Translations under genes and position numbers: made by a program | Source of the DNA: Escherichia coli O157:H7 | Lineage (GTDB): Bacteria; Pseudomonadota; Gammaproteobacteria; Enterobacterales; Enterobacteriaceae | Reading direction: 5' to 3' (one strand) | DNA length: 64,000 nt | Assembly: GCF_013167455.1 (NCBI RefSeq) | Contig: NZ_CP038328.1 | The notes under the pieces: generated by a model | What the model was told of the DNA's origin: nothing | The model's input: the letters and a program-made list of their open reading frames with translations, nothing else | The model's database searches: none | Shown: piece after piece, positions 10,256 through 31,814 of the stretch | How the letters are laid out: every line of letters begins with the position of its first letter | Numbering within the stretch: position 1 is the first letter of the stretch

Positions 10256-10342
10256 GCCCGGATGGTGGAATCGGTAGACACAAGGGATTTAAAATCCCTC
10301 GGCGTTCGCGCTGTGCGGGTTCAAGTCCCGCTCCGGGTACCA
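10256..10342 (+). tRNA. leuZ: tRNA-Leu (anticodon TAA), intact copy; prophage integration target
   Basis: 87 nt gcccggatggtggaatcggtagacacaagggattTAAaatccc...ggttcaagtcccgctccgggtacca, with long variable arm. Confidence 0.95.
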
Positions 10343-10408
10343 TGGGAAAGCTAAGAATAAAATCAAAGCAATAAGCAGTGTCGTGAAACCACCTTCGGGT
10401 GGTTTTTT
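10288..10408 (+). repeat. attL: left copy of the ~121 bp direct repeat (3' ~55 nt of leuZ plus its terminator)
   Basis: Nearly identical to 31693-31814 (one indel, one mismatch seen by eye). Confidence 0.85.
10385..10408 (+). terminator. rho-independent terminator of the tRNA operon
   Basis: gaaaccaccttcgggtggtttttt hairpin plus T-run. Confidence 0.7.
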
Positions 10409-10880
10409 CGTATTTGTATTTTGTGCAATGGCGGTAGAGTGGCGATGGTGTGGCGATATGCAGAAACAATGGTAGTGCACGTGCTGTTTAAACTCTAAGG
10501 ATGAAGCAGAATTCTTCTGCAGCTCCTCCGTATTTCGCATAGTGAACCAGGACCTCTGTTAAACAAAAATTTTTCTGGGATTTTTCCACTCGACTTTATT
10601 TTTCCTCCTGCAATCCACCAACAGGTACCTGCGCTAATCTATCTTTTTAATCTGACAACATCTTGGGAAAAGGCAAATTCGTCAGATTTACTGTTTTTCT
10701 GCTGCCTCGAATGCCGATGTCTGAAGCACTGATAAGAGTTCTATCTCTTTGATATAGATCTTTTTTTTGATGAATTGCACGACATATTATCGTTATGACA
10801 CCTTCTTGTTAAAGGTATTGTGCTCCTCATCTCGATTTTATGATGTGGGCTATGATTGGTTAGTAATTGAGTGTATCGGT

Positions 10881-11162
10881 ATGCGATGTGGTTTATTAAT
10901 GGCAATCTGCCTTTGTTTAGTATCTTTTAGTGGATATGCAGCAACAGGAAAGTCTGATGCTCAGATCAAAAAAGAAATAATTAAAGAATCCATTGAATCT
11001 TATCCAGGCAATTGTGCGTGTCCTTATAATCATGCAAGGAATGGTAGTAGATGTGGTGGACGCAGTGCATATAGCCGTAATGGAGGGTATGACGTGGTAT
11101 GTTATGAGGGTGATGTTACCGATGAAATGATCCGGCAATGGAAGCAGGAGAATGCTGAGTAA
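10881..11162 (+). CDS. small secreted cysteine-rich protein of unknown function (prophage cargo)
   Basis: ORF 10767-11162; likely start at the ATG at 10881 (MRCGLLMAICLCLVSFSGYA / ATGKSD... signal peptide); 4 Cys in the mature part; AT-rich. Confidence 0.5.
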   Translation: MRCGLLMAICLCLVSFSGYAATGKSDAQIKKEIIKESIESYPGNCACPYNHARNGSRCGGRSAYSRNGGYDVVCYEGDVTDEMIRQWKQENAE

Positions 11163-11261
11163 TCTCTTTTAACAGGTTTGTTGTGCGAGCATTATGTGCC
11201 GTTAACGGTTCACATCCCGAAAATCTGCGCTTCTGGCTGAAAGCCTGTCCGGTGGTCCTTC

Positions 11262-12398
11262 GTGAGCGATTTCATCAACAATGTAAGTGTAGATTCAATT
11301 GGTCAACGCAACAGTTATGTGAAAACATGGGGTTGCGGAGGTTTGGAACTATGGAAGAACGGAACAGGCTTCAGTGAAATAGCGAATATCCTGGGTTCAA
11401 AACCCGGAACGATCTTCACTATGTTAAGGGATACTGGCGGCATAAAACCCCATGAGCGTAAGCGGGCTGTAGCTCACCTGACACTGTCTGAGCGCGAGGA
11501 GATACGAGCTGGTTTGTCAGCCAAAATGAGCATTCGTGCGATAGCTACTGCGCTGAATCGCAGTCCTTCGACGATCTCACGTGAAGTTCAGCGTAATCGG
11601 GGCAGACGCTATTACAAAGCTGTTGATGCTAATAACCGAGCCAACAGAATGGCGAAAAGGCCAAAACCGTGCTTACTGGATCAAAATTTACCATTGCGAA
11701 AGCTTGTTCTGGAAAAGCTGGAGATGAAATGGTCTCCAGAGCAAATATCAGGATGGTTAAGGCGAACAAAACCACGTCAAAAAACGCTGCGAATATCACC
11801 TGAGACAATTTATAAAACGCTGTACTTTCGTAGCCGTGAAGCGCTACACCACCTGAATATACAGCATCTGCGACGGTCGCATAGCCTTCGCCATGGCAGG
11901 CGTCATACCCGCAAAGGCGAAAGAGGTACGATTAACATAGTGAACGGAACACCAATTCACGAACGTTCCCGAAATATCGATAACAGACGCTCTCTAGGGC
12001 ATTGGGAGGGCGATTTAGTCTCAGGTACAAAAAACTCTCATATAGCCACACTTGTAGACCGAAAATCACGTTATACGATCATCCTCAGACTCAGGGGCAA
12101 AGATTCTGTCTCAGTAAATCAGGCTCTTACCGACAAATTCCTGAGTTTACCGTCAGAACTCAGAAAATCACTGACATGGGACAGAGGAATGGAACTGGCC
12201 AGACATCTAGAATTTACTGTCAGCACCGGCGTTAAAGTTTACTTCTGCGATCCTCAGAGTCCTTGGCAGCGGGGAACAAATGAGAACACAAATGGGCTAA
12301 TTCGGCAGTACTTTCCTAAAAAGACATGTCTTGCCCAATATACTCAACATGAACTAGATGAACCGCCCCGGGTTTCCTGGAGAGTGTTTTATCTGTGA
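11262..12398 (+). pseudogene. IS30 transposase, damaged: canonical N-terminus missing, C-terminus replaced by read-through into IS629
   Basis: ORF matches IS30 Tnp from ELWKNGTGFSEIANILG... to ...LAQYTQHELD; the native start (MRRTFTAEEKASVF) is absent and the last ~12 codons read into the IS629 inverted repeat. Confidence 0.7.
11288..12357 (+). mobile_element. IS30 remnant (left IR TGTAGATTCAATTGGTCAACGCAACAG present; 3' end cut off by the IS629-like insertion)
   Basis: IS30 terminal repeat and transposase recognised from memory; the right end with its IR is missing. Confidence 0.75.
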
Positions 12399-12400
12399 AC

Positions 12401-30203: not shown

Positions 30204-30232
30204 TCTTACTTGAGCTAAATTGAGGTAATGAT

Positions 30233-30580
30233 ATGAAAGTAAAAAAGGTTCAACTATTAGTTACTTTTTTATCTATGTTTTCTTTTTCCGCCGTCGCAAT
30301 GCCTTTTAAAACTATTGAACGTGAGAGTTTCAATGGGGTATGGCCATTTAATACTGATGAGGTTCAATTACAGTGTCTTGATGGTAATCCTTATGTGATG
30401 AATTTTGACGATAATAAGTTATATGCACTTACAGGTTTGGCTCGAATAAAAGGTAAAACATTTGGTGCGTTACCGTTAGATAACAATAATCCATTTTGGC
30501 TAGATAATGATGCCGCCCCAGGGTTAAAAAAGAGTCTGGGGGATGTCACTAAGGCTGCATTTGATTTATGTGATAAGTAA
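30233..30580 (+). CDS. hypothetical secreted/periplasmic protein (cargo)
   Basis: 115 aa; N-terminal signal peptide; two Cys (possible disulfide); AT-rich. Confidence 0.55.
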   Translation: MKVKKVQLLVTFLSMFSFSAVAMPFKTIERESFNGVWPFNTDEVQLQCLDGNPYVMNFDDNKLYALTGLARIKGKTFGALPLDNNNPFWLDNDAAPGLKKSLGDVTKAAFDLCDK

Positions 30581-30585
30581 CTAAA

Positions 30586-31587
30586 ATGTCGGTTCGTAAG
30601 ATTCCATCAGGTAAATGGCTTTGTGAATGTTATCCCTACGGGGCATCGGGAAAACGCATTCGTAAACAGTTTGCGACAAAAAGTGAGGCGCTCTCTTATG
30701 AGCGCCGTTTAATGAATAGTAGAGTTGGAGACGAGTTTCAAGATGGTTCTGGTCCTCGTCTTTCTGAGTTGATTGCTCGTTGGTTTGAGATGTACGGTAA
30801 AACCTTGTCCTCTGGTGCAGAGCGCAAAGTCAAACTTGAGGCGATTTGTTCCAGGCTGGGAGATCCATTTGCTTCTCAGTTTGACAAAAATATGTTTGCT
30901 ACTTATCGGGAAAGAAGGCTATCAGGAGAATGGAATCCCAAGGGGAAGAAAAAACTTAGTGAAGCAACCGTTAATCGCGAGCAGTCATATCTACATGCTG
31001 TTTTTGCCGAACTGAAGCGCCTTGGGGAGTGGTCTGGTGAAAACCCCCTGACTGGTATTCGCAAGTTTCGTGAGGAAGAAAAGGAACTGGCGTTTCTGTA
31101 TGTAGATGAGATTGAACGCCTTCTGATTGCGTGTGATGAGTCACGGAATAAAGATTTGGGGGTTGTTGTCCGTATTGGGCTTGCGACTGGTGCTCGGTGG
31201 AGTGAAGCAGAAGGATTAAAGCAATCTCAAGTACTGCCCGGTCGAATCACATTTGTTAAAACTAAAGGAAAGAAGAACCGCACTGTACCGATTTCACCTC
31301 AATTGCAAGCTATGCTTCCTAAAAAACGAGGAGCGCTATTTTCACCATGTTATGAGGCTTTTGACGCTGCAATTAAGAGAGCGAAGATCGAGCTTCCTGA
31401 TGGGCAATTAACTCATGTGCTACGTCACACGTTTGCCAGTCATTTTATGATGCGGGGTGGAAATATTCTTGTGTTGCAAAAAATACTGGGGCATAGCGAT
31501 ATAAAAATGACTATGCGTTATGCGCATTTTGCTCCAGGTCATTTAGAGGCTGCTGTTGAATTGAACCCTTTTGACAATAGAGGGTAA
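30586..31587 (+). CDS. int: phage integrase, tyrosine recombinase family
   Basis: 333 aa; catalytic box HVLRHTFASHFMMRGGNILVLQKILGHSDIKMTMRYAHF; transcribed toward the adjacent att repeat. Confidence 0.9.
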   Translation: MSVRKIPSGKWLCECYPYGASGKRIRKQFATKSEALSYERRLMNSRVGDEFQDGSGPRLSELIARWFEMYGKTLSSGAERKVKLEAICSRLGDPFASQFDKNMFATYRERRLSGEWNPKGKKKLSEATVNREQSYLHAVFAELKRLGEWSGENPLTGIRKFREEEKELAFLYVDEIERLLIACDESRNKDLGVVVRIGLATGARWSEAEGLKQSQVLPGRITFVKTKGKKNRTVPISPQLQAMLPKKRGALFSPCYEAFDAAIKRAKIELPDGQLTHVLRHTFASHFMMRGGNILVLQKILGHSDIKMTMRYAHFAPGHLEAAVELNPFDNRG

Positions 31588-31692
31588 AAAGTGGCGATAA
31601 AAAGTGACAATAGATTCAAATGGCGTTGTATAGAGCCATTTTCAAAGTTAATAAAATCATAAGGTTATGATTTATAAATGGTGGTTGATAGT

Positions 31693-31814
31693 TTTTAAAA
31701 TCCCTCGGCGTTCGCGCTGTGCGGGTTCAAGTCCCGCTCCGGGTACCATGGGAAAGATAAGAATAAAATCAAAGCAATAAGCAGTGTCGTGAAACCACCT
31801 TCGGGTGGTTTTTT
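31693..31814 (+). repeat. attR: right copy of the direct repeat (partial leuZ 3' end plus terminator)
   Basis: Matches 10288-10408 except for a c-to-a difference after gggaaag and one extra T in the terminal run. Confidence 0.85.

Follow-up and report, generated by a model that had tools for sequence, protein, structure and literature searches.

A decayed P2-like prophage at leuZ of Escherichia coli O157:H7, almost certainly the known element Sp13

Results

The leuZ Locus

We analyzed a 64,000-nucleotide stretch of Escherichia coli O157:H7 DNA (contig NZ_CP038328.1, assembly GCF_013167455.1; hereafter the window), in which a prophage element separates the tRNA gene leuZ from yecA. leuZ, specifying tRNA-Leu with anticodon UAA (10256–10342; ARAGORN and an Rfam tRNA match), closes the tRNA cluster glyW, cysT, and leuZ (tRNA-Gly, tRNA-Cys, and tRNA-Leu(taa); 10041–10342; ARAGORN). 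yecA, which directly follows leuZ in K-12, starts at 31944. The features of the element are collected in Table 1.

Positions 10288–10408 recur at 31694–31814 as a direct repeat of 121 bp with a single mismatch (10351 C vs. 31757 A), recovered by repeat search, alignment, and BLAST. The start-to-start spacing of these attachment (att) repeats is 21,406 bp; by our own arithmetic, which assumes uniform base composition, ~1e-62 matches of 120/121 would be expected by chance in 24 kb. Each repeat block comprises tRNA positions 33–87 (55 nt) and a further 66 nt holding the terminator; within the left copy, a terminator-like hairpin of 9 bp (10385–10406) precedes a T-run. Repeat search also returned a weaker extension to 137 nt at 94% (10288–10424 vs. 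31694–31830), of which the added 16-nt stretch matches at 10/16 positions and is not regarded as meaningful. The sole other repeat inside the element is the pair formed by a full-length insertion sequence (IS), IS629, and an IS629-like fragment. A preliminary description of the window had reported that ~55 nt of the leuZ 3′ end and its terminator are duplicated at the right end and that yecA resumes beyond the right copy; both statements hold, with repeat coordinates within one base of ours.

Near-Identity with Prophage Sp13

The Sakai record annotates 2593039–2614158, between yecA and leuZ, as "prophage Sp13, P2-like phage." Comparison of the window with Sakai gave zero differences over 9001–12353 and three single-nucleotide polymorphisms (SNPs) over 13668–33000 (20505, 21948, and 26049), all of which fall outside int, cox, the repressor gene, and the gene for gpA. 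Locus, gene order, the IS30 remnant, and the IS629-like fragment are shared with Sakai Sp13 (CP-933T in EDL933), whereas Sakai Sp13 has no full IS629 in its IS30 remnant and retains 1,028 bp that are deleted in the window. Across complete genomes, the interval was matched over at least 80% of its length in 261, nearly all at 99.7–100% identity, and its flanks are collinear with those of strain 17B6-2 at 99.99%.

Sp13 is known to occupy leuZ, a site that is vacant in some O157:H7 isolates (PMC8190617). In Sakai it lacks most morphogenetic genes and circularizes spontaneously (Asadulghani et al. 2009, PMC2669165). Mitomycin C raises its circular DNA ~30-fold, with amplification and transcription of the element; Sp13 DNA appears at a low level in DNase-resistant particles but was never transferred (PMC2669165). 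The excision test by polymerase chain reaction after mitomycin C, which the preliminary description had proposed, has thus already been published for Sakai Sp13, with a positive outcome (PMC2669165).

The interval is almost certainly this known defective P2-like prophage, Sp13 (CP-933T): a P88-like Xuanwuvirus integrated at leuZ and eroded by ISs to an excisable, self-replicating, noninfectious remnant. This reading draws together the repeat and gene content, the IS boundaries, the vacant leuZ sites, and the near-identity to Sakai Sp13.

Phage Family and Relatives

Nucleotide identity to Xuanwuvirus P884B11 (P88-like, 37.1 kb) is 90–95% over the tail, replication, and early regions, reaching ~95% for the gpA gene, while at the immunity, integrase, and att end the identity is 95%, to prophage 520873, another neighbor of yecA. 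PHROGs assigned the sheath, tube, E, T, U, tail fiber assembly, ParMR, gpA, Cox, repressor, and integrase genes, and RefSeq annotation agrees. A decayed P2-family prophage at leuZ, as first described, is therefore borne out by PHROGs, RefSeq annotation, and DNA similarity, as is its layout: integrase and repressor at the right end, followed leftward by the early operon, gpA, parMR, and a partial tail module. Neither the same content without direct repeats nor a lack of phage homology was encountered.

A P2-type contractile tail cluster is present, with FI truncated, T frameshifted, and D reduced to 75 bp, and gpA lies downstream of a divergent Cox/C switch (phrog_91, phrog_575, and repressor families). 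By comparison with P884B11 positions 1–904 and 20846–37100, no P2-type head, portal, or terminase gene (Q, P, O, N, M, and L) and no cos was matched; in a search for cos, the ends of P884B11 likewise had no match in the window. The element is a remnant of a member of the Peduoviridae rather than a complete member, its head and packaging genes having been lost by deletion.

With P884B11 and P88, the element shares an FI-FII-E-E′-T-U block on the strand opposite D, the early operon, the isrK/C4 cassette described below, the epsilon-like gene, the 940-amino acid (aa) gpA, and ParMR. It differs from them in its immunity region and integrase, and ~17 kb of morphogenesis and lysis genes together with cos are present in P884B11 and gone from Sp13. 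The preliminary description had measured the island against the 33 kb of P2; the proper size comparator is instead the 36–37 kb of Xuanwuvirus (P88-like). An IS629-mediated inversion of the FI-U tail block was also considered and rejected, because its opposite-strand orientation is native in Xuanwuvirus 520873 and P884B11.

The right end has other relatives. The prophage of strain VL40 and prophage 520873 share with Sp13 the 121/137-nt repeat, the integrase, the DUF2511 gene, the 216-aa gene, and the repressor, and VL40 shares the left-end 93-aa gene as well. The VL40 prophage differs in being near-complete at 34.2 kb with another structural module, and 520873 is a 37-kb prophage of Xuanwuvirus type. 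In VL40 (NZ_CM177011.1, 2965500–2999940), int is disrupted by IS1, and the structural module includes DUF2586 sheath-like and Vgr-type genes. The VL40 prophage shows modular exchange among leuZ-integrating P2-like prophages.

The integrase is 56% identical to the SopEPhi and ENT90 integrases and 39% identical to those of P88 and other P2-like phages (Peduovirus), which places it on the 186/SopEPhi branch. With 186, SopEPhi, and Fels-2, Sp13 shares this integrase branch, integration into a tRNA or tmRNA gene with a long gene-restoring identity block, and candidate 186-like arm repeats; their targets differ, being a tRNA-Ile gene for 186, ssrA for SopEPhi and Fels-2, and leuZ for Sp13.

Integration into leuZ

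An intact tRNA gene at one end and its displaced 3′ fragment at the other, with a tyrosine integrase inside the element and vacant sites in related genomes, is the arrangement of the anticodon-loop class of islands (Williams; Islander). The identity block opens with T33. This base is the first of the 7-nt anticodon loop (TTTAAAA), on either side of which lie the anticodon stem arms; in the Islander paper the anticodon loop is the commonest tRNA sublocation (2,083 of 3,919 islands). At the single mismatch, the left copy has C, but the empty leuZ sites of K-12 and FORC_044 agree with the right copy in having A. The right copy is therefore the displaced chromosomal fragment, the left copy past the crossover is phage DNA, and the crossover is placed between 10288 and 10350. 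Strand exchange most likely took place in the anticodon loop.

A synthetic empty site was built by joining window positions 9800–10287 to 31694–32300. A contiguous leuZ-yecA junction is found in 3,781 of 5,426 complete E. coli genomes, and the predicted excision product is found at 100% identity in one genome, that of FORC_044. At this locus (NZ_CP016755.1, 2054101–2055195), FORC_044 has an O157-type yecA allele whose protein accession is the same as in O157:H7 strain 17B6-2. Its vacant site fits either an exact loss of Sp13 or a lineage that never gained it.

In the proposed mechanism, attP would supply a second leuZ 3′ half together with the operon terminator, strand exchange would leave a functional hybrid leuZ with terminator at attL, and the original leuZ 3′ fragment would be moved to attR, beside yecA. 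The repeat would be 121 bp long because the attP copy spans the leuZ 3′ half plus the operon terminator; since the phage copy carries that terminator, the glyW-cysT-leuZ transcript would still terminate after integration.

The repeat had been called unusually long. The same 121/137-nt repeat, however, flanks the near-complete 34.2-kb leuZ prophage of VL40 and a 22.4-kb version of the element in 17B6-2, so that its length is a property of the int/attP module rather than of decay. Identities of 50 and 110 nt have been reported for P2-like prophages in tRNA genes (Nilsson et al. 2011, PMC3448106), and the att repeat is not unusual in length for this integrase lineage.

Both sides of the att core are flanked by direct repeats resembling the 186-type arm-site consensus tgccGCCActt (PMC3448106). 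These are candidate arm sites, and the TGGCG(G/A)T 7-mer of the left set is itself frequent in the genome. The integrase gene ends 106 bp from the right repeat.

Insertion Sequences and Ongoing Decay

IS DNA makes up 3.4 kb of the 21.4-kb element, and two of the three gaps are bounded by IS30, IS629, or the IS629-like fragment. The IS30 copy in gene D is flanked by a 2-bp AG target duplication; IS629 subsequently split this copy, whose 3′ end is visible in 17B6-2. On its right, IS629, in which Rfam marks an ALIL pseudoknot (13217–13333), adjoins a 1,028-bp deletion that took away the 3′ end of IS30, codons 1–89 of D, and ~168 codons from the start of the sheath gene. The largest gap, ~17 kb, has taken the invertase, fibers, baseplate, lysis, head, terminase, portal, and cos of P884B11. 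Within the tail block, alignment to P884B11 shows that T is inactivated by a 1-nt deletion near 17393.

At the left end, most of D, ogr, and hok are missing relative to P884B11. The rest of D, ogr, and hok/mok are absent to the left of the D remnant, and the left-end moron region abuts D at codon ~115. No open reading frame (ORF) or similarity for an Ogr-type late activator was found between 11163 and 11287; ogr stands beside D in P884B11 and 520873. The junction 11212/11213 is a deletion or a mosaic junction.

Three stages of erosion can be read from the strains: in Sakai the sheath gene is full and the IS30 remnant free of IS629, 17B6-2 has IS629 without the 1,028-bp deletion, and the window has both. 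Other strains show different spacings at the IS629/sheath spot. The IS629/sheath junction of the window (13668/13669) has no single-piece match in the 5,426 complete E. coli genomes. IS-linked decay is still ongoing.

IS activity would have cost the integrated phage about half of its genome. In the order of events that we infer, IS30 would have entered gene D, an IS629-like copy would have come to mark the ~17-kb gap, and in this strain an extra IS629 would have inserted before the sheath gene lost its first part to the neighboring 1,028-bp deletion. The integrase, Cox, repressor, gpA, and ParMR genes are all intact and, with the putative epsilon-like antirepressor, would make up the surviving remnant.

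An Epsilon-Like Gene and Antisense-RNA Cassette

Two Rfam-supported RNAs, one isrK/seqA-like and one C4/P4-CI-like, lie on the early-operon strand immediately upstream of the gene for a P4 epsilon-like derepression protein. The Rfam models concerned pick up RNAs related to seqA and to the CI immunity RNA of P4 (PMC10111431). The C4 loop CUUUGCUCU is complementary to AGAGCAAAG (26202–26194) within the isrK-like element and also to GAGCAAAGA (26006–25998), a stretch overlapping the ribosome-binding site (AAGAGG) of the epsilon-like ORF. This pairing suggests that an antisense RNA may control the antirepressor, as in P1 immI or P4. The RNA/epsilon cassette is conserved in P884B11 (5645–5842 of the fetched locus) and in the VL40 prophage (16472–16669 of the fetched locus) and belongs to the P88-like group at large rather than to this remnant in particular. 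A literature search found no paper describing such RNA control for P88-like phages, which is not proof of novelty.

Classical SOS signals were sought in the same region. The LexA box CTGT-N8-ACAG has no match in the early region, its sole match in the element falling inside the gpA coding sequence, and the 20-mer LexA consensus has no match with three mismatches allowed; only a LexA half-site, TACTGTAT, occurs at 26161–26154. Sp13 thereby differs from 186-type phages, no LexA box or Tum-type SOS module having been found in it. Its repressor has been described as lacking a peptidase motif (PMC2669165).

A 205-aa ORF (25685–26299, minus strand) is annotated as an "antirepressor" in Sakai (ECs_2630) and as a "transcriptional regulator" in P884B11. 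Both Rfam RNAs overlap with this ORF, as does, in a different reading frame, the 76-aa gene; its weak regulator matches are confined to the N-terminal half. It is probably not a genuine single gene.

Cargo and Other Features

At the left end, the 93-aa moron protein is identical in VL40 (WP_001303543.1) and conserved at the leuZ-proximal end of related prophages. The segment 10412–11212 is present in 617 of 5,426 genomes, which makes the int/attP module a common one; searched against phage records, the segment has no match in any deposited phage genome.

The left-handed beta-helix acetyltransferase carries the RefSeq name "serine O-acetyltransferase," which appears over-specific, all NCBIfam matches being far under their cut-offs. 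This hexapeptide-repeat gene sits where P88-like phages have a DNA invertase and an invertible fiber segment. Beyond it, inside the cut tail fiber assembly gene, Rfam IS009 matches at 191 bits (19551–19749, minus strand).

At the right end, the Arc-like and Cox-like genes diverge from the repressor gene, with the early operon after them. Both cargo genes beyond the repressor, encoding the 216-aa and DUF2511 proteins, are conserved in VL40. The 216-aa protein (29553–30203), a "membrane protein" in the Sakai record, shows a subthreshold resemblance to the N-terminal part of the flagellar regulator Flk (NCBIfam score of 58 bits vs. a cut-off of 353). The position of the prophage between two flagellar regions (fliA... 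and flhDC...) is probably a coincidence. PADLOC gave no match to known defense systems among the cargo genes.

Table 1. Features of the leuZ element, in window coordinates
Feature	Position	Strand	Basis or remark
leuZ	10256–10342	+	Intact hybrid gene; 5′ 32 nt chromosomal, portion 3′ of the crossover phage-supplied, beginning with nt 33 for a crossover in the anticodon loop
attL identity block, 121 bp	10288–10408	+	From anticodon loop TTTAAAA to just past the terminator T-run; phage-type C at 10351
Three direct repeats TGGCG(G/A)T, 11-bp spacing	10429–10457	+	Candidate 186-type integrase arm sites (P′ arm)
Left-end moron gene, 93 aa	10881–11162	+	phrog_27544, E 7e-58; function unassigned
Tail gene D remnant, 75 bp	11213–11287	−	BLAST to gene D of P884B11 and 520873
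IS30, 5′ 1,071 bp	11288–12358	+	Left inverted repeat TGTAGATTCAATTGG at 11288; RefSeq and Sakai annotation
Full-length IS629/IS1203, 1,310 bp	12359–13668	−	Not in Sakai Sp13
Tail sheath FI, C-terminal 226 codons only	13674–14354	+	phrog_23 positions 245–475 of 496; first ~168 codons deleted
Tail tube FII	14354–14866	+	phrog_55/phrog_103 group; RefSeq name
Tail chaperones E and E′	14921–15286 and 15295–15450	+	phrog_55/phrog_103 group; RefSeq names
Tape measure T	15437–18240	+	phrog_28; RefSeq flag "frameshifted"
Tail gene U	18253–18741	+	phrog_76
Left-handed beta-helix acetyltransferase cargo gene	18898–19470	+	phrog_2154
Tail fiber assembly gene, 5′ end cut by IS fragment	19514–20044	−	phrog_105 positions 29–203 of 239
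IS629-like (IS3 family) fragment, 1,058 bp	20046–21103	+	95% identical to IS629; marks ~17-kb gap
parR	21136–21450	−	phrog_2515; partition cassette typical of P88-like phages
parM	21455–22414	−	phrog_691; same partition cassette as parR
gpA-type rolling-circle replication endonuclease, 940 aa, intact	22491–25313	−	phrog_91, E 1e-274
Rest of early operon, small genes including MarR-like, DUF4754, and DUF4761	25320–28609	−	PHROGs, RefSeq
P4 epsilon-like "derepression protein," 76 aa	25758–25988	−	phrog_3688; RefSeq and Sakai names; PMC2669165
C4/P4-CI-like antisense RNA	26132–26045	−	Rfam 78.5 bits, above gathering threshold
isrK/seqA-like RNA	26242–26168	−	Rfam 63 bits, above gathering threshold
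Cox-like excisionase/repressor	28631–28834	−	phrog_575
Arc-like repressor gene	28851–29057	−	phrog_3431
Immunity repressor, 134 aa, helix-turn-helix type	29133–29537	+	phrog_8 and others; "phage repressor protein" in Sakai record
Two cargo genes between repressor and int	29553–30580	+	216-aa protein (phrog_5825) and DUF2511 protein (phrog_2950)
Tyrosine integrase, 333 aa, intact	30586–31587	+	phrog_1; sequence identical to Sakai Sp13
Repeats GTGGCGATA, GTGACAATA, ATGGCGTTG	31591–31630	+	Candidate P-arm sites, proposed from sequence
attR	31694–31814	+	Displaced chromosomal leuZ 3′ fragment with native terminator; chromosomal A at 31757

Discussion

A few observations weigh against the reading of the interval as an IS-eroded Sp13, each on a particular part of it. 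The excision and replication data come from Sakai, not from the strain of the window. The junction between IS629 and the 1,028-bp deletion, unmatched in 5,426 genomes, may be an assembly artifact. The loss of ogr, hok, and the 3′ part of D at 11212/11213 left a junction with no IS beside it, so IS activity does not explain every deletion. The crossover, finally, could have occurred anywhere within 10288–10350, for example in the T-loop instead of the anticodon loop.

Other origins can be set against a decayed prophage. Already in the preliminary description the element was called satellite-like or cryptic, and an evolved P4-like satellite or phage-inducible chromosomal island (PICI), keeping regulation and replication while hijacking helper capsids, might seem to follow from the P4 epsilon-like gene with its P4-CI/C4-like RNA cassette and from Sp13 DNA reaching DNase-resistant particles despite the absence of head genes (PMC2669165). 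The cassette, however, is also carried by two full-size relatives, P884B11 and the VL40 prophage; sizes of 34–37 kb are found among relatives with the same ends; and two of the three gaps end at IS elements. Broken tail genes, needless for a satellite, have been kept; there is no cos match, no sid, psu, or delta gene, and no alpha primase, replication being by gpA; and O157 strains show stepwise further loss, with no transfer seen. The compact architecture, own primase, helper-exploiting genes, and cos/pac of P4-like satellites, PICIs, and capsid-forming PICIs (cf-PICIs) were not found in the element. We consider a satellite very improbable: "cryptic" stands, in the sense of a decaying prophage, whereas "satellite-like" falls to the IS-bounded gaps, the full-size relatives, and the lack of cos and of capsid-redirecting and primase genes. 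Nor does the element resemble an R-type tailocin, its sheath being truncated, its tape measure frameshifted, and baseplate, fiber, and lysis genes absent.

Selection could instead have kept a domesticated remnant, whether for the acetyltransferase, the 216-aa protein, the DUF2511 protein, or superinfection immunity. Near-unchanged copies in at least 261 complete genomes, and regulatory and cargo genes that are intact beside broken structural genes, would suit this explanation, but clonal inheritance within O157:H7 accounts for retention without selection, the leuZ site is vacant in some O157:H7 strains (PMC8190617), and no known defense family was detected; domestication is accordingly unlikely in our judgment. 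A tandem or composite of two leuZ islands, with a left-end island joined to a P2-like remnant, draws on the left 800 bp (10412–11212), which are unmatched in any deposited phage genome. There are just two att copies, however, and in VL40 this left end runs directly into the late genes of one P2-like prophage that also has the same int end, which makes a composite scarcely credible. We therefore retain the reading of the interval as Sp13, a P88-like prophage in decay.

The element is already known, and its recognition in the window is correct but ordinary, with little importance beyond annotation. The 1,028-bp deletion specific to the window might be used to mark the strain. At this locus, the rebuilding of a target tRNA gene by a prophage and IS629-driven prophage erosion in O157:H7 are both seen in textbook form.

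The sole open biological question touched by the locus is the induction of Sp13 by DNA damage, for which the RNA cassette is a testable candidate. As a tentative and, in our view, rather doubtful proposal, the cassette may be the switch that makes Sp13 inducible by mitomycin C despite a repressor with no peptidase motif and the lack of a LexA box. If true, a P4/P1-immI-style RNA immunity circuit would operate inside a helper-type P2-like phage, and it would account for the inducibility left open by Asadulghani et al. 2009.

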